Source: an uncultured Gammaproteobacteria bacterium (GTDB lineage: Bacteria; Patescibacteriota; Patescibacteriia; Magasanikbacterales; GWA2-37-8). Taken from it: a stretch of 64,000 bases of DNA. The notes beneath the pieces are model-generated. The model was given only the letters and a program-made list of their open reading frames with translations. It was not told the DNA's origin and searched no databases. The stretch covers positions 240,523-304,522 of the forward strand of contig CAYHBZ010000001.1 of NCBI GenBank assembly GCA_964355175.1, written 5' to 3'. The translations under genes and the position numbers were made by a program. How positions within the stretch are numbered: position 1 is the first letter of the stretch; each line of letters begins with the position of its first letter. Of this stretch, positions 28,818 through 47,593 are shown piece by piece.

Positions 28818-29378
28818 TTATTTTTTATCTCCCAAAATTTGTTTTAATTTTTTCAAAGCGCGATGCATAGTGACTCGCACGGACAATTGGCTCTTGCCAG
28901 TGATCTCGGCGATCTCACTGATATCGAGCTCATCAACATATTTCAAAGTCAGCACTTCCTGATATTCTTGTTTTAATTTTTTTATCGCTTCGATTATTTT
29001 TCCGGTTTCCATTTTATTGGCCAACTCGTCGTACCATTTACCTTCGTCCCCTACCTCGATATTTTCATCCAGGGTGACTTCTGGTTTGGCAGCGCGAGCG
29101 CGATAAAAATCGATAATACTGTTGCGTGCGATTTTATAGAGCAAGCCACTGAAACTTTTTATCTCCGGCTGTTCTTCGCTATTAGTAATTAGAAACTGCC
29201 AGGCCTTCAAAAAAACTTCTGAAGTGATATCCTCGGCATTCTCATGACTACTAACTTTAAAAAAAACGAAGCGGTAGATTCGTTGTACATATATATCGTA
29301 AAGTTCCGTGTAAGCTTCTGGATCCTTTTTTGTGAATATCCTATATAGTAGGATTTTCTCGGTAAGGAAGTTGCTCAT
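28818..29378 (-). CDS. ECF-type RNA polymerase sigma-70 family factor
   Basis: Region 2 YRFVFFKVSSHENAEDITSEVFLKAWQ. Region 4 LTLKYVDELDISEIAEITGKSQLSVRVTMHRALKKLKQIL. Confidence 0.85.
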   Translation of the reverse strand: MSNFLTEKILLYRIFTKKDPEAYTELYDIYVQRIYRFVFFKVSSHENAEDITSEVFLKAWQFLITNSEEQPEIKSFSGLLYKIARNSIIDFYRARAAKPEVTLDENIEVGDEGKWYDELANKMETGKIIEAIKKLKQEYQEVLTLKYVDELDISEIAEITGKSQLSVRVTMHRALKKLKQILGDKK

Positions 29379-29509
29379 TATAGAAGACGAAAGAAAGTTA
29401 AAATTGTTACACTACTGCCTAACTACCTATTTAGACCTTTTCTGTCCTGCAAGCGATTTGCATATATTACCAAAAAAGGCATGAACGGTCAAATATGATA
29501 GTAGCGGTA

Positions 29510-29686
29510 TTGGCTAATAAAATGCTTTTTCAAACTGTGAAAATATTCGCACAATTTGCAACCCACTCGGCTCTGTCCCTGAACTCGTCGCTTGACGCTC
29601 CTCAGACAGCAGGGACAGACACGCCTCGTGGCTCACAAATTGTCTGCTCGTATTTTCAATGTTTTCAAAATCATTTTATTAGCCAA
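29510..29686 (+). repeat. Copy A of a ~176-nt conserved GC-rich inverted-repeat element (candidate structured RNA or cis-element)
   Basis: 15-bp terminal helix TTGGCTAATAAAATG/CATTTTATTAGCCAA. Internal core AATTTGCAAC...CCCTGAACTCG...CAGCAGGGACAG...CTCACAAATT is shared with 45486-45661. Confidence 0.5.
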
Positions 29687-29696
29687 TACCTTTACA

Positions 29697-29720: not shown

Positions 29721-29769
29721 ACTAGCACGAAACTATACCAAATAAAACTCAAAAAGTCAATGATTACCC

Positions 29770-29818
29770 TTGACAGAACCTTAAAAATAAGGTAGTTTGT
29801 ATACACTAGTCTATACAA
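29770..29818 (+). promoter_or_regulatory. Putative sigma70 promoter (TTGACA-17-TAGTTT) overlapped by near-palindrome copy 2 (29795-29818)
   Basis: TTGACA at 29770-29775. The palindrome spans the -10 and TSS region of the downstream HTH gene. Confidence 0.35.
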
Positions 29819-29823
29819 ATTTT

Positions 29824-30249
29824 ATGGATAGCTCCAAAGGTCAACTAGCCAACAATGAACAAAAACCAAAAGAAATGATCCGCGTCTCTGTGTCAGAGGC
29901 GGCTAGACTTTTTGGTGTAAACTCTCAGACTATTCGTCGCGCTATCGCCGCTCAAGAGATAACCTATGTGATAGTAGCCGGACGCTATAAAGTAAACTTT
30001 GAGAGTTTGGTAAAGTGGTCACAACAACACACTACCGTAAAGAATAAATTAGCCAATCGTGGTATCGGTCAATTTGTTGAAAAGTGGAAAATAAAAAACC
30101 CTCTATACTCCCCCAACCCAAAATCGCTTTCCAAACCAACCGCACCAGCCGCCAAAAAAGTAGAAAAAATAGAACCGGAAAAAATCGAAAACAAACCCAC
30201 CGAAGACAACGAAACCAACCTGCCAAGCACTTACCTCAAACCCGATTAA
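29824..30249 (+). CDS. Small helix-turn-helix DNA-binding protein (Xis/MerR-like HTH). Start may be ATG 29824 or 29874; the ORF-track TTG start at 29797 is unlikely.
   Basis: IRVSVSEAARLFGVNSQTIRRAIAAQEITYV HTH. Lys/Pro-rich C-terminal tail. Confidence 0.55.
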   Translation: MDSSKGQLANNEQKPKEMIRVSVSEAARLFGVNSQTIRRAIAAQEITYVIVAGRYKVNFESLVKWSQQHTTVKNKLANRGIGQFVEKWKIKNPLYSPNPKSLSKPTAPAAKKVEKIEPEKIENKPTEDNETNLPSTYLKPD

Positions 30250-42805: not shown

Positions 42806-44416
42806 ATGGAAAAAATCAAGAGTATTGAAGAAAAAATTATCCGGGAGTGCTATAAAAAACCTCCAAAAAAACCAGACGATATCAATGTGATAAAGCGTCG
42901 AATTTTGCGCGCCCATTTTGGCGGCGGCACACCACCGACTTCGACACAATTGCTTAAAGCATATCATAAACTAGTCAAAGAAAACAAGCTCAAACCCAAC
43001 CTGGCTCTGGAAAATGTGCTCCAGCGCCGCGCGGTGCGCACCATGTCCGGTGTGACTATCGTCACTGCTCTCACCAAGCCATATCCATGCCCAGGTCTCT
43101 GCACCTACTGCCCCACCGAAGCGCGCATGCCCAAGAGTTATATTTCCGACGAGCCGGCGGCGGCCCGGGCTTTGGCTTTGGAATTTGATCCTTATGAACA
43201 AACTTGGCGCCGTCTCGAGGCGCTACGCAAAAATGGCCATCCGATTGATAAGGTAGAATTAATTATCAAAGGTGGTACTTGGAATTCTTATCCGATTACT
43301 TATCAATACTGGTTTATCGCCCGCTGTTTTGAAGCCTGCAATCGCGTACGCAAAACCAAAGTATCGGAAAAAATGACGTTGGATGAATTGCGAGCGGCGA
43401 TGGTAAAAATTCAAAATAAAAATGAAACGGCTAAACATCGTATTATTGGTTTAACTTTGGAAACTCGTCCGGATTTTATTACTCATAAAACAATTCTCGC
43501 GATGCGTGAAATGGGTACCACTCGTATTGAAATCGGTGTGCAGCATATCGACGAAAAAATAATGAAGATGACCAAACGCGGACATGGACTGAAAGAAACC
43601 GTAGACGCAAGTAAACTTTTGCGCCAATACGGATTTAAAGTAGATTATCATTTGATGCCGCAACTGCCATTTAGCACTCCAGCCAAAGATCTCAAAATGT
43701 TACGCCAAATTTTTACCGACAATCGTCTGCGTCCCGACATGATTAAAATTTATCCATGTACGGTCGTAAAAAATTCCGAATTATACGAATGGGTAAAAAC
43801 CGGACAGTTCAAACCTTACGCCGACAAACATCTTCTGCGAATTCTCAAAGAATTTAAATCTGATGTCCCCCGCTATCTACGCATCTCGCGCCTGATTCGT
43901 GACATTCCATCTCATCATATCGTGGCGGGAAATATGGTCACCAATTTACGCCAAGTAATTCAAGCGGAAATGAAAGCCGAAGGAAACACTTGTCGCTGTT
44001 TGCGTTGTCGCGAAGTGGGCCACCAGACCGAGATTGATTGGAAAAAAGAAAAAATAAAAAAATTCGTAGACCAATACGAAACCAGCGGTGGCCAAGAATA
44101 CTTTATGAGTTTTGAAAATGAAACGCGTGACGCGGTGTTGGCTTTTTGTCGCTTCCGTATTGATCCGTCCGGCATCTATCCGGCCTTTGTGCGCGAGCTA
44201 CATGTATACGGACAGTCCGTAGAAATCGCTGGACACAAAAAAGGCGCTTCTCAACACACTGGCTTTGGAAAAGAACTGGTAAAAACCGCGATGGAAATTT
44301 GTAAACAAAATAAAATACCGCGCTTGGCGGTAATTTCGGGTGTGGGCGTGCGTGATTACTATCGCAAACAAGGTGCGAAGCTGGATGGAAATTATATGGT
44401 CTTTGATGTTAAATAA
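42806..44416 (+). CDS. Elp3-like tRNA-modifying radical-SAM + GNAT acetyltransferase
   Basis: KPYPCPGLCTYCP (Elp3-type CX9CX2C radical-SAM cluster) ... IEIGVQHIDEKI ... C-terminal GNAT QHTGFGKELVKTAMEIC. Confidence 0.8.
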   Translation: MEKIKSIEEKIIRECYKKPPKKPDDINVIKRRILRAHFGGGTPPTSTQLLKAYHKLVKENKLKPNLALENVLQRRAVRTMSGVTIVTALTKPYPCPGLCTYCPTEARMPKSYISDEPAAARALALEFDPYEQTWRRLEALRKNGHPIDKVELIIKGGTWNSYPITYQYWFIARCFEACNRVRKTKVSEKMTLDELRAAMVKIQNKNETAKHRIIGLTLETRPDFITHKTILAMREMGTTRIEIGVQHIDEKIMKMTKRGHGLKETVDASKLLRQYGFKVDYHLMPQLPFSTPAKDLKMLRQIFTDNRLRPDMIKIYPCTVVKNSELYEWVKTGQFKPYADKHLLRILKEFKSDVPRYLRISRLIRDIPSHHIVAGNMVTNLRQVIQAEMKAEGNTCRCLRCREVGHQTEIDWKKEKIKKFVDQYETSGGQEYFMSFENETRDAVLAFCRFRIDPSGIYPAFVRELHVYGQSVEIAGHKKGASQHTGFGKELVKTAMEICKQNKIPRLAVISGVGVRDYYRKQGAKLDGNYMVFDVK

Positions 44417-45410
44417 AAAACTCTCGTGCTGATCGGATCAGAGCAATATTATTCGCGCCGGCAGCATACAGCTCCGGTGCGTTTTCTTTATTTATTCCAC
44501 CGATAGCTACCCATGGAATAAATATTTCTTTTTTAATTTTCTTGATTGCTTCCACGCCGACCGGTATGCGATCTTTTTTTATTGGGGTTGGGAAAATTGG
44601 GCCAATACTTACATAGTCCGCGCCCTCTGCTACTGACACTTTCATCTGATCCAAATTATTATTGGACTTACCAATAATTTTCGCGCTGCCCAAAATTTTT
44701 CTGGCTTGCAATAGCGGCATGTCTGCTTGGCCAATATGAATACCAGCCACTGGTAATTTAGCGGCGACTTCGGCACAATCGTCGATGATCAAAAGTATCG
44801 GCGTATAATCAAACGCGGTTTTATCTTTTTTATCTATATATTCGCAAAGAAATTTAGCTTGATTATAAATTTCATTTTTGTCCCCGGTTTTATTTCTGAG
44901 TTGCAACACTTTGGCACCATGATCCATGAGCCAAATTAATTCATCCGTGCTATCACTGACCGGATACACAATTCCAGATTCAAAATATAATTGGAGCCAA
45001 TAATGCGGGGTCGCGGACAACACTTCAAACTCTAGACGATAAACATCGTGGCGTAATTTCTCAAAGTATGAAAAATGGTGAGGAAGGTAAATTTTGGAGT
45101 ATTCTTCGAGCACGCGCAAAGCCTCCTCTAGACGAGAAAAATTGGCTTTCATTAAACCCCAGAAATTGCGTCTAGCGGCCAAGTTGTTCTCTTCACTACC
45201 TTTGCCCACATCCTGTCCAAAATCGCGCCCAGTCAATCTAGTGGCTGAACCTAACAAATACTCCAGCTGTGCCAAAAGATGTCGTAACGGTCGAATTTTG
45301 GCGTACAGAGCCTCATTGCGTAACACAAATCTAGCGGTATCTTCTACCACTCTCATTCCCTCTTTTGCCCTACTTAAATTGGCATCAATTAGCGAAAAAT
45401 CTGTATTCAT
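44409..45410 (-). CDS. thiE: Thiamine-phosphate synthase (ThiE) domain with an N-terminal ~150-aa uncharacterised domain
   Basis: C-terminal half HIGQADMPLLQARKILGSAKIIGKS ... VSIGPIFPTPIKKD ... WVAIGGI (TMP-TPase). N-terminal half unassigned. Confidence 0.7.
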   Translation of the reverse strand: MNTDFSLIDANLSRAKEGMRVVEDTARFVLRNEALYAKIRPLRHLLAQLEYLLGSATRLTGRDFGQDVGKGSEENNLAARRNFWGLMKANFSRLEEALRVLEEYSKIYLPHHFSYFEKLRHDVYRLEFEVLSATPHYWLQLYFESGIVYPVSDSTDELIWLMDHGAKVLQLRNKTGDKNEIYNQAKFLCEYIDKKDKTAFDYTPILLIIDDCAEVAAKLPVAGIHIGQADMPLLQARKILGSAKIIGKSNNNLDQMKVSVAEGADYVSIGPIFPTPIKKDRIPVGVEAIKKIKKEIFIPWVAIGGINKENAPELYAAGANNIALIRSAREFFI

Positions 45411-45485
45411 AAGGCATTTGCCTGGTTATTGGCGTTATGGTATCATAAATATCACTAAAAGCAAGTTACAATATGATCTAGTATC

Positions 45486-45661
45486 ACTCGCGAATACATC
45501 CCTTTCACTCACCTAGAAAACACTCGGATAATTTGCAACTCCCTGAGCCTCTGGCCCTGAACTCGCCTGTGGGCTCAAACAGCAGGGCCAGCCACGACTC
45601 TGGGACTCACAAATTATTTCCTCGTGTTTTCACGGTTCGTTACAGGGATATATTCGCGAGT
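45486..45661 (+). repeat. Copy B of the ~176-nt conserved inverted-repeat element, immediately upstream of glyA
   Basis: 18-bp terminal helix ACTCGCGAATACATCCCT/AGGGATATATTCGCGAGT. Core AATTTGCAAC...CCCTGAACTCG...CAGCAGGGCCAG...CTCACAAATT. Confidence 0.5.
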
Positions 45662-45693
45662 TCTTTATTTTTATAAAATTTTTTATCTATCCT

Positions 45694-46941
45694 ATGTACA
45701 CTCATACACTAAAAGAGTTCGATCCGATTGTTTTGGAAAGTATTAAAAAAGAACAACAACGCCAAGAAGAAGGACTGGAAATGATCCCGTCTGAAAATTT
45801 TGTTTCCCCGGCTGTGCTTGAAGCACTTGGATCTGTGCTTACCAATAAATATTCAGAAGGTTATGCTGGCAAACGCTATTATGGTGGTTGTGAATTTATT
45901 GATGAAGTGGAAACTTTGGCGATCGAACGCGCTAAATTACTTTTTGGTGCGGAACATGTGAATGTCCAGCCGCTTTCTGGTGCACCGGCAAATGTGGCTG
46001 TCTATTTTGCTTTATTGCAACCAGGTGATACGGTACTTGGCATGGACCTATCTCACGGCGGACACCTGACTCACGGACACCCGGTGACCTACATGGCAAA
46101 AATTTTTAATTTCATTAGGTACAAAACTAACGCCGAGGGAAAAATTGATTTGGATAATTTGCGCACTATGGCACTGGAGCACAAACCAAAAATTATTTTG
46201 GTTGGATACAGTGCGTATTCACGCGAAATTGAATATGAAAAAATAAAAGCAATCGCGGATGAAGTTGGCGCTATCACTATGGCCGACATTGCGCACATCG
46301 CTGGCTTGATTGCCGGCGGACAGATGAACAATCCGGTGCCACTTTTTGATGTCGTCACTACCACTACCCACAAAACTTTGCGCGGTCCTCGTGGTGGTAT
46401 GATTATGTGTAAAGAAAAATTTGCCAGCGCAATTGATAAAGCGGTATTCCCTGGTCTGCAAGGCGGGCCACACGAAAATAATATTGCAGCTAAGGCAGTT
46501 GCTTTCAAAGAAGCACTGTTACCTGAATTCAAAGAATATACTGCTCAGATAAAAAAGAACGCCAAAGTACTCGAATCTAAATTTAATGAATTTGGTTACA
46601 AACTTTGTTTTGGTGGCACTGACAACCACCTGCTTTTGATTGATGTGACTATGAAAGGTATTGGCGGTAAACAGGCTCAAATCGCGCTTGATAAAGCTGG
46701 TATCACGGTGAACAAAAATATGATTCCAGATGATACTCGTTCTCCTTTTGATCCTAGCGGTATCCGCCTAGGCACTCCTGCTCTGACCACTCGTGGCATG
46801 AAAGAAGCTGAGATGGAAACAATCGCCACCTGGATAAATGAAGTGATAATAAATCATGATAACGAAACAAAATTGGCTGAGATAAAAAACCAGGTGAAAG
46901 AATTAACCAAAAAATTCCCTCTTTACCCGACATTGGTCTAA
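45694..46941 (+). CDS. glyA: Serine hydroxymethyltransferase
   Basis: [41 protein letters not shown] ... [18 protein letters not shown] (PLP-Lys motif). Confidence 0.95.
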
Positions 46942-46945
46942 AGGG

Positions 46946-46974
46946 TTGACAAAAACTAAAAAAACCTCTATAAT
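46946..46974 (+). promoter_or_regulatory. Perfect-consensus sigma70 promoter TTGACA-17-TATAAT overlapping the glyA terminator stem
   Basis: TTGACA 46946-46951. Spacer aaaactaaaaaaacctc (17 nt). TATAAT 46969-46974. Confidence 0.4.
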
Positions 46975-46997
46975 GAAATGTTTATAGAGGTTTTTTC
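46955..46997 (+). terminator. Rho-independent terminator of glyA
   Basis: CCTCTATAA-(8 nt)-TTATAGAGG + TTTTTT. Confidence 0.55.
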
Positions 46998-47137
46998 ATT
47001 CTATAAAATTGTTCTTTGATAAGTTTCGCTTACCAATAGCAAAAAGGAAGTATATAATGCTTCTTATTTGCTGTTGGGAGGTGAACGAAACTTTTCGTTC
47101 TGTTTCACTTCAGTAAACCCGAGCCCAAGGAAAGAAA

Positions 47138-47440
47138 GTGCAGATCCTATTTACGATCTTGGTCCCGTCTGTTTTGGCCTACCTTCTCTTCATTTTCGGG
47201 CGGCGACAACTCCGCAAGAGGGAGTGGGCGCGCCTCACCGGGAAGCGGTGGCAGGAACCGAGCAGCGAGTTCGAAAACACCTGGTCATTCCAGGACACGA
47301 TCCTCACGGTCATCGCCAAGTCCGGCGATCATGACCGCTTCGAAGCTACTCGCAAGCTTGCTAGCCAATTGGAGCTCGGACATCCGTGGACCAGCCGTCC
47401 GCGCGAGATTCCGCAATTCGGGGTCTACGCCAACCGATGA
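47138..47440 (+). CDS. Small (100 aa) high-GC membrane protein with a GTG start
   Basis: AAGGAAAG SD 5 nt upstream of GTG. N-terminal TM ILFTILVPSVLAYLLFIFG. GC-rich codons, in contrast to flanks. Confidence 0.4.
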   Translation: MQILFTILVPSVLAYLLFIFGRRQLRKREWARLTGKRWQEPSSEFENTWSFQDTILTVIAKSGDHDRFEATRKLASQLELGHPWTSRPREIPQFGVYANR

Positions 47441-47539
47441 ATCCGACGAGACAGAACGAAGACGGCGACGGAGTGCAAACTCCGCCGCCTGCTTCAATGA
47501 AATACTTTTGCAAAAAGGTAAAGGTACTTGATTAAAGCA

Positions 47540-47580
47540 AATTTAAAAAATAAAAAAGAACTAAAATTTTTTAGTTCTTT
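47540..47580. terminator. AT-rich bidirectional hairpin terminator between island 3 and pyk
   Basis: AAGAACTAA-AATTTT-TTAGTTCTT flanked by A- and T-runs. Confidence 0.4.
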
Positions 47581-47593
47581 TTTATTTTTTAAA

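Follow-up and report, generated by a model that had tools for sequence, protein, structure and literature searches.

A dispersed hairpin with a conserved asymmetric tip upstream of glyA in Magasanikbacteria: a probable interspersed palindromic repeat

Bacterial interspersed palindromes such as REP, ERIC and MITE elements are normally lineage-specific. The ERIC/IRU elements of Enterobacteriaceae and Vibrio are imperfect intergenic palindromes of approximately 127 bp that occur only in a few related families. REPs are 20-40 nt long, have conserved stems and a conserved GTAG or CGTC tag, and are mobilized by RAYT, a Y1 HUH transposase whose gene is often flanked by REPs, and MITEs (e.g., Correia, RUP and Nezha) have conserved terminal inverted repeats (TIRs) and target-site duplications (TSDs). 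Here, we describe an imperfect hairpin of 176 nt, named copy B, which lies in the 283-nt divergent spacer between glyA and a thiD2-thiE fusion gene (thiDE) in a stretch of 64,000 nt from a member of Magasanikbacterales (contig CAYHBZ010000001.1 of assembly GCA_964355175.1, positions 240,523 to 304,522; the whole stretch is referred to as the window). With a probability of roughly 65%, we consider copy B to be one copy of a dispersed, unstable and non-coding palindromic repeat that landed in the glyA leader and whose conserved apical module probably docks a trans-acting factor, and neither a metabolite sensor nor a dedicated regulator of glyA. This reading is built on a conserved asymmetric tip, covarying arms, a multi-copy state in many bacterial groups with no gene association, and the filled, inverted, gutted and empty states of one and the same site in relatives.

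Among the described systems, the element works most like ERIC/IRU, REP/REPIN and MITE elements, that is, as a bacterial interspersed palindromic repeat. As far as ERIC/IRU elements are generally known, both they and the present element are dispersed, non-coding and imperfect intergenic palindromes that are often co-transcribed with their neighbours, are conserved best near the centre and show presence/absence at orthologous sites, with no transposase identified. However, there is no sequence relation between the two, the module described below is present in at least seven major groups, and the arms are longer, with copy-specific outer parts. The element also resembles REP/REPIN sequences, being a multi-copy extragenic hairpin without TSDs that is thought to be a folded single strand and whose copy number varies widely between related genomes, but it differs from REPs in forming a hairpin of 150-280 nt with a conserved asymmetric tip and variable stems, and no RAYT was seen near any copy. 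With MITEs it has in common the size range, hairpin potential, intergenic location, multiple copies and presence/absence polymorphism; assignment to MITEs was rejected because its termini are the least conserved part (the outer stems of the two window copies are unrelated) and no duplication is visible at its junctions when compared with the one empty site (L222). A tip of ~30 nt that is nearly identical across at least seven major groups sets the element apart from all known families to which it was compared.

A conserved asymmetric tip on covarying arms

The initial annotation, made from the sequence of the window, had proposed a structured element at the position of copy B (Table 1), which was borne out by folding. 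As RNA, the + strand reaches -78.7 kcal/mol (z -8.2) and the - strand, which carries the module, -101.7 kcal/mol (z -12.2), with none of 200 shuffles being equally good for either strand. The - strand fold has the shape of a near-continuous rod without a large bubble. The annotation was also right that a second copy precedes an unrelated HTH gene: this full hairpin (copy A) folds at -85.1 kcal/mol on the + strand and -92.7 kcal/mol on the - strand, and the two copies have an inner core in common while their outer stems, each fully paired, are unrelated in sequence.

On the minus strand of the window, the apical module reads 5'-(4-5 variable paired nt)-CCUG-CUGUYNGA-G(variable hairpin)C-GAGUU-CAGG-(variable paired nt)-3', and is thus laid out as a helix (P1), an asymmetric internal loop (CUGUYNGA opposite GAGUU) and a small variable hairpin (P2) that closes it. 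A covariance model of the module (R1) detected exactly two copies in the window, A and B, and no third, with + strand scores of ~10 bits. The helices covary strongly, and the 8-nt and 5-nt strands of the loop are fixed. Among 36 diverse tips, the five variable pairs flanking CCUG/CAGG make use of all four Watson-Crick pairs; 94.4% of the cells are paired, compared to 71.3% in shuffles, and 118 cells show double changes, compared to 35 in shuffles, a value reached by none of 500 shuffles. When the 3' partner is shifted by 1-3 columns, pairing falls to 27-51%. Five variants that were found without the tip pattern keep the loop strands and have changed the seemingly invariant helix P1 with compensation: an Azoarcus-type variant recovered via its arms (P1 = UCCCG/CGGGA), a Polyangiaceae variant recovered by the covariance model (loops kept, P1 compensated) and three copy B orthologues recovered via the thiDE protein (P1 = CCGUG/CACGG and CUCUG/CAGAG). 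P2 varies in length from 7 to ~28 nt and is frequently a C(GNA)G triloop or the heptamer GCGNAGC; no GNRA or UUCG loop was seen in P2.

Pairing is maintained throughout the arms; close to the tip, their sequence is characteristic of the lineage, and towards the outside it differs from copy to copy. In an alignment of seven Magasanikbacteria copies (four loci, five genomes), the full hairpin has 66 consensus pairs, 30 of which show compensatory double changes. Asymmetric internal loops are conserved in these arms (e.g., GAACGAAC opposite GUGAGUGAAAG), as are a tandem U-G/G-U step and CGAG/CGAG segments that face each other and were read by eye as tandem G-A pairs. Conservation of these seven copies is lowest at the termini, and the outer 20-25 nt are likewise the most variable part of the Azoarcus copies. 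As a side observation, ~13-16 bp outside the core of Azoarcus/Rhodocyclaceae stems (e.g., L009, L020, L064, L073 and L076) are hypervariable and perfectly paired, and this variable stretch is bordered further out by loosely conserved GCGAGTCGNCGAYGG / CCATCGNCGACTCGC.

Filled, inverted, gutted and empty states at one site

Relatives were found via thiDE homologues, which led to Magasanikbacteria contigs of graded similarity and identical gene order. In L093 (thiDE 93% identical), the spacer is filled in the window orientation, with many compensated changes in the outer stem. The spacer is also filled in L218, L220 and L226 (thiDE 92%, 84% and 83%), and here the entire element is inverted in place: as read, these copies are 60-66% identical to the window copy, compared to 69-79% when reverse-complemented, and the model matches the opposite strand. 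In all three inverted copies, a T-run on the junction side is base-paired to an A-run located at the opposite hairpin end. Only the outer stem is present in L225 (405-600; sample of L220; thiDE 86%), in which the central ~120 nt with the module are gone. The spacer is empty (83 nt) in L222 (thiDE 82%), and the outgroup L224 (thiDE 52%) has no element. L225 is a natural deletion derivative, which shows that the palindrome is lost from the centre outwards and that the cell can do without the tip. The insertion junctions showed no direct repeat in a comparison of the filled sites with L222, a single empty site that is possibly a deletion.

The copy A locus shows a similar instability. L011 carries the element in inverted orientation and with a diverged outer stem. 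Its contig breaks off within the element, so that the comparison covers the sigma-side flank, which is nearly identical to that of the window. Because L011 and L093 come from one metagenome-assembled genome (MAG), the copy A and copy B loci have flipped independently. The high protein identity to the LacPavin MAG (glyA 97%, sigma factor 95% and thiDE 93%) assigns the window itself to Magasanikbacteria. Taken together, the inverted, gutted and empty states in relatives argue that the element is no regulator dedicated to glyA, thiDE or the sigma factor gene. A role of the element as a regulator of glyA or of the HTH gene has to be given up: at the orthologous spacer, three relatives carry it in inverted form, one has lost its central part and one lacks it altogether, and copy A is inverted in L011.

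The best candidate for a glyA promoter is located upstream of copy B and was recognized by eye in the empty-site relative L222 as well; with the promoter at this place, the glyA mRNA would carry the hairpin in its 5' untranslated region in either orientation. The predicted thiDE promoter lies between copy B and thiDE, so that the thiDE mRNA would be without the element. The alternative description of the element as a promoter-embedded structure stood in part, in that copy B lies in the leader, between the likeliest glyA promoter and the start codon. The distance to glyA, put at 33 nt in the annotation, agrees within one base with the 32 nt counted, and these AT-rich 32 nt are present, in diverged form, in all filled relatives and missing at the empty site.

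Table 1. Positions of the two hairpin copies, their motifs and the adjacent features in the window
Feature	Position	Strand	Basis or details
Copy B, whole imperfect hairpin (176 nt)	45486..45661	- (module strand; antisense to glyA)	Folding of both strands
Copy B apical module	45542..45600	-	Covariance model R1, 61.0 bits, E 3.7e-16; 9.6 bits on +
Copy B internal loop			8-nt 5' strand CUGUUUGA; 5-nt 3' strand GAGUU
Copy B motif part CCCTGAACTCG	45555-45565	+	
Copy B P2	45565-45574	+	
Copy B motif part CTCAAACAGCAGGG	45574-45587	+	
AT-rich 32-nt spacer, copy B to glyA ATG	45662..45693		Alignment of filled and empty sites
glyA (serine hydroxymethyltransferase)	45694..46941	+	Pfam SHMT, E 1.4e-159
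thiD2-thiE fusion gene, divergent from glyA	44409..45410	-	Pfam ThiD2 and TMP-TENI
Predicted glyA promoter-like site	45418..45446	+	Consensus scan; TTGCCT-17-TATCAT with TG
Predicted thiDE promoter-like site	45442..45471	-	Consensus scan; TTGTAA-18-TATGAT
Copy A, second full hairpin	29501..29695	- (module strand)	Inverted repeat, alignment with copy B, folds
Copy A apical module	29564..29627	-	Covariance model R1, 52.5 bits, E 1.3e-13
Copy A motif part CCCTGAACTCG	29577-29587	+	
Copy A motif part CTCAGACAGCAGGG	29601-29614	+	
Predicted promoter-like site near copy A	29732..29760	-	Consensus scan; TTGACT-17-TATAGT with TG, 10/12
ECF-type sigma factor gene, one side of copy A	28818-29378	-	Pfam
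HTH_17 gene, other side of copy A	29797-30249	+	Pfam

Several further features of the two loci were observed. The promoter-like site near copy A is ~35 nt upstream of the hairpin on its module strand. The HTH_17 domain of the gene on the other side of copy A is presumably of the excisionase type; no integrase is adjacent to this gene, and no similar gene was seen beside the other copies examined. On the + strand, a similar short string, CAA(A)TATGAT(C)TAGTA, precedes both window copies (45462-45481 and 29479-29495), a resemblance that could hint at a preferred target. Since part of this string (TAGATCATA, on the other strand) is also present at the empty glyA site, it probably belongs to the flank and not to the element. 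On the other side of glyA, the convergent spacer to the pyruvate kinase gene (46942-47593, ~650 nt) has a GC content of up to 0.62, compared to 39% for the genome, and its GC-rich core (~47100-47480) contains an open reading frame (ORF) of 100 aa (47138-47440, +) without a Pfam match; the spacer gave no match in Rfam. In relatives, the same spot is empty (L220 and L222) or contains an ORF of 181 aa (L218) or ALGX and MBOAT genes (the P0002 contig), which gives it the appearance of a hot spot for strain-variable insertions.

Distribution, gene neighbourhood and comparison with described families

One genome per species was searched with the pattern CCCTGAACTCG-N(5-30)-ACAGCAGGG, the string common to copies A and B. 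A total of 94 loci were obtained, ~67 of which are genuine, and in the genuine ones the string is always located at the tip of a long hairpin. The hosts include Azoarcus and Rhodocyclaceae, two Polyangiaceae MAGs, Tindallia, Desulfobacula and another deltaproteobacterial MAG, gammaproteobacterial MAGs, one Acidobacteriota MAG and two Magasanikbacteria MAGs. The module is present in at least seven major bacterial groups (Magasanikbacteria, Clostridia, Beta- and Gammaproteobacteria, Desulfobacterota, Myxococcota and Acidobacteriota), and the suggestion that the element is genome-specific does not apply. The number of copies per genome ranges from one to ~20, with ~20 loci in one Azoarcus MAG and two in Magasanikbacteria. 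A looser pattern gave at least 120 matches in metagenomes, with further subfamilies among the matches listed, and at least 133 distinct copies were gathered overall.

The gut subfamily is an element of ~270 nt from an uncultured gut clostridial bacterium, in which a neighbouring protein is 57-58% identical to that of Blautia, the nearest named relative. The groundwater subfamily (~190 nt) has a conserved three-way-junction fold with a variable side hairpin. Some additional observations were made on these copies. Gut copies were seen in human gut metagenomes (L098, L115, L123, L126, L133, L145, L147, L148, L183, L197 and L199), most of them with a stability of approximately -130 to -155 kcal/mol in a 228-nt window. 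A single left flank adjoins any of three right flanks and, in L098, meets one of these as its reverse complement; either copies have recombined with each other, or contigs were joined at the repeat during assembly. One gut flank contains genes for a MotA-like protein of 553 aa and a protein of 381 aa, which we suspect to be a putative Zorya (ZorAB)-like pair. The groundwater subfamily (L105, L109, L112, L114, L139, L171, L195, L206, L208 and others, as well as L013 at ~2355-2580 on the - strand) is conserved over ~190-250 nt in ~20 different contexts; its fold consists of a closing stem CCGAGC...GCUCGG, the variable side hairpin directly 5' of the module and a conserved 3' strand AAAAGAGAGAC. 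Upstream of the element there are short repeats of the GGACA type and an extra GCUCGG, which could pair alternatively with the closing stem. Copies often form closely spaced pairs of opposite orientation, sometimes with members of different subfamilies, such as those in L013 (~2424-2497 and 2644-2702), L205 (~300 nt apart) and L077/L069 (separated by 1.2 kb of the same contig). In one Magasanikbacteria MAG, Ike-150m-44, a pair of copies brackets one gene between smc and clpP.

The copies are found in all types of spacer (13 divergent, 20 convergent, and 15 and 8 tandem), and their neighbours are housekeeping genes, including those for a sigma factor, RNase J, an aminoacyl-tRNA synthetase and MTHFR, smc, clpP, groEL, gatB, recR, ftsW and others. 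Pfam analysis of the 30 nearest neighbours and 24 window ORFs revealed housekeeping genes only. No protein family recurs beside the copies across subfamilies when all nearby ORFs are clustered by blast, and no reverse transcriptase was seen to recur near them. A Y1 HUH transposase was not detected in ~1.3 Mb of flanks by motif and tblastn searches. No association of the copies with tRNA genes or integration sites was observed, neither direct repeats in the flanks (TSDs) nor conserved terminal repeats (TIRs) were noticed, and the loci examined contain no isolated half-motifs that might flank a gene in an autonomous form. The orientation of copies shows no bias with respect to the sign of the GC skew (31 vs 29; a weak test on 8-kb pieces). 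IMG/VR viral contigs gave one match, which is probably due to chance, and 72,556 plasmids, 50,697 phages and 5,426 E. coli genomes gave no real match; a phage or plasmid origin was rejected because viral, plasmid and phage collections contain no real match.

All 4227 families of Rfam 15 were compared with the window by cmscan at the gathering score and with 45380-45720, on both strands, at E<=10. The window gave a single tRNA, and the narrower region gave only a chance match to a long non-coding RNA and no ZTP, THF, glycine or other riboswitch, in keeping with the earlier opinion that the element is not a known riboswitch. At the gathering score, 6 genome loci and 20 metagenome loci matched no family, nor did a groundwater copy at a relaxed E-value. 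Searches of the literature for the tip strings in full text, for Azoarcus repeats and for structured RNAs in the Candidate Phyla Radiation (CPR) yielded no description of the family. Accordingly, the family is found neither in Rfam 15 nor in the searchable literature and appears to be undescribed.

Other described systems were compared individually. The ZTP/pfl, THF-I, THF-II and glycine riboswitches were rejected, as there is no model match and no fixed gene class or orientation; the likeness to glyA/folate riboswitches consists of the position upstream of glyA only, and, unlike riboswitches, the element is multi-copy, orientation-independent and dispensable at the glyA locus. In PATEs of the IS200/IS605 type, subterminal hairpins are present at both ends and TnpA(Y1) acts in trans; integron attC sites have RYYYAAC...GTTRRRY boxes and form cassette arrays of the same orientation. 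The lack of TIRs and TSDs and some strand asymmetry fit a PATE, but the conserved part of the element is central and the flanks searched contain no TnpA. Like attC, the element keeps structure over sequence, has paired boxes, an unpaired central spacer and a variable terminal hairpin, and suggests a strand-specific function; attC was rejected because the boxes are absent (GTTCAGG is opposite CCTGCTG) and the copies are solitary or oppositely oriented, and it is the unpaired loop that is conserved here. 6S RNA is encoded by a single-copy gene and has a closing stem, a large central bubble and an apical stem. It was rejected in view of no match at E<=10, the ~20 copies in one Azoarcus MAG and the lack of a large bubble in copy B. 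Retron or other reverse transcriptase-associated non-coding RNAs were rejected because no protein family recurs beside the copies and the 30 nearest neighbours are housekeeping genes. Hammerhead, K-turn, SRP domain IV, sigma-54 promoter, LexA box and Neisseria DUS, judged by eye, fail at defining positions or in covariation, and the pair needed for a fold like group II intron domain 5 is contradicted by the covariation of the 36 tips.

Weighing the explanations and what the element may mean

If copy B belongs to a dispersed palindromic repeat, the family would spread within genomes and between phyla, and every copy would persist as an unstable palindrome. The arms may be kept complementary by intrastrand templating, in which template switching transfers a mutation from one arm to the other, as described for quasi-palindromes; such switching would give every copy a perfect outer stem that is entirely different from those of the other copies. 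The interior could be flipped in place by recombination or by a switch of strands in the outer stem, and the conserved loops might be a docking or processing site, on the folded single strand, for a trans factor encoded elsewhere. An effect on glyA would be incidental and would come from a hairpin of -79 to -102 kcal/mol that stands between the likely promoter and the start codon in either orientation. With regard to the nature of the single strand, the conserved tandem G-U pairs and the lower folding energy of the module strand (79 of 105 copies) point to RNA; the C(GNA)G triloops, the GCGNAGC mini-hairpins, the lack of GNRA and UUCG loops and the absence of a rule linking orientation to transcription point to single-stranded DNA (ssDNA).

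The most serious competing explanation, which we regard as unlikely, is a family of structured small RNA genes that act in trans or as an RNA module, with an apical loop that is bound by a widely conserved protein and serves as sponge, scaffold or processing signal, and copies that have been duplicated and exchanged between phyla. Loops that are invariant on covarying helices would be expected from it, and the strand bias in folding energy, the tandem U-G/G-U step, the good promoter-like site just upstream of copy A on the module strand and the ~190-nt fold that the groundwater subfamily keeps together with a variable side hairpin are all in its favour. However, no consistent promoter or terminator accompanies the copies, which also occur in convergent spacers and in both orientations at one site; a strain variant exists without the entire module, ~20 copies in Azoarcus-type genomes against 2 in Magasanikbacteria would be unusual for a cellular RNA, and P2 loops are GNA triloops of the DNA type, with no GNRA or UUCG. 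A non-autonomous derivative of an ssDNA transposon (REP/RAYT or an IS200/IS605 PATE), mobilized by a Y1 HUH transposase encoded elsewhere, could account for the same triloops and mini-hairpins, for hairpins with conserved irregularities and some strand specificity, and for the lack of both TIRs and TSDs. We nevertheless consider it improbable, since ~1.3 Mb of copy flanks contain no Y1 transposase, the conserved part is central rather than subterminal and has no GTAG or CGTC tag, orientation shows no GC-skew bias (31 vs 29), and the element is far longer than REPs.

The two explanations that assign a direct role in transcription or its control are the least probable. The 5' loop strand (UGCUGUYUGAG) and the hairpin loosely resemble the rrn and nut BoxA followed by a hairpin, which might make the element a BoxA/BoxB-like site for Nus factors in the antitermination of read-through transcripts, and the universal NusB and NusE could explain conservation across phyla. 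The gammaproteobacterial BoxA consensus is GYUCUUUAANA, in which C4 and U6 are critical and their mutation abolishes function (PMC5725501). GCUGUYUGAGN differs from this consensus at 3-4 positions, with G in place of C4 in all copies and C in place of U6 in ~40%; moreover, the 3' loop strand, which is equally conserved, is left unexplained and the orientation relative to genes is random, which makes such a site highly improbable. A cis-acting leader, i.e., a novel riboswitch or protein-binding attenuator that controls glyA or thiDE, would agree with the strong structure of copy B and with its place downstream of the predicted glyA promoter and ahead of the ATG of this gene. It is hardly credible in view of the lack of a riboswitch model match and of an expression platform (a terminator or a helix sequestering the Shine-Dalgarno sequence), the occurrence of the same module beside sigma factor, smc, clpP, groEL, gatB, recR and other genes, and the inverted, gutted or absent state of the element at this very site in relatives whose thiDE is 82-92% identical.

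The dispersed palindromic repeat that we favour also faces some difficulties. The single empty site in L222 could be a deletion instead of the ancestral state. Neither a mobilizing enzyme nor TSDs or a conserved TIR were found beside the copies, so that movement is deduced from distribution and presence/absence and not from a mechanism. The constancy of the tip is partly imposed by the pattern searches, an ascertainment effect for which only the five independent variants provide a check. The strand asymmetry of the arms is weak (487 G-U vs 389 A-C positions) and gives little indication whether the single strand would be RNA or ssDNA. Furthermore, the strictly conserved loops of the module in different phyla, the asymmetric loops conserved in the Magasanikbacteria arms and the three-way-junction fold of the groundwater subfamily all suggest purifying selection and would fit a functional RNA gene family equally well.

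A further proposal, which we put forward tentatively and consider rather unlikely, though with a real chance of being correct, is that the apical module (P1, CUGUYNGA opposite GAGUU, and P2) is an undescribed functional motif: the docking or cleavage site of a broadly distributed protein, or a self-processing RNA, carried by self-maintaining hairpins across at least seven groups that include the reduced genomes of CPR. If this were true, the family would represent a new class of mobile structured element and not another lineage-specific REP or MITE.

For genome annotation, the strongly structured element upstream of glyA is a false lead in this genome with respect to folate or glycine riboswitches. 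In Patescibacteria, Proteobacteria, Myxococcota and gut Clostridia alike, the ~30-nt module is preserved almost to the letter, which would call for either a trans-acting partner common to these groups or a recent exchange between phyla, and to our knowledge neither has been described for elements of this type. Finally, the inversions, the central deletion and the compensated turnover of stems in close relatives constitute a natural series on how long palindromes are kept up and lost, a question that matters especially for genomes poor in repair machinery.

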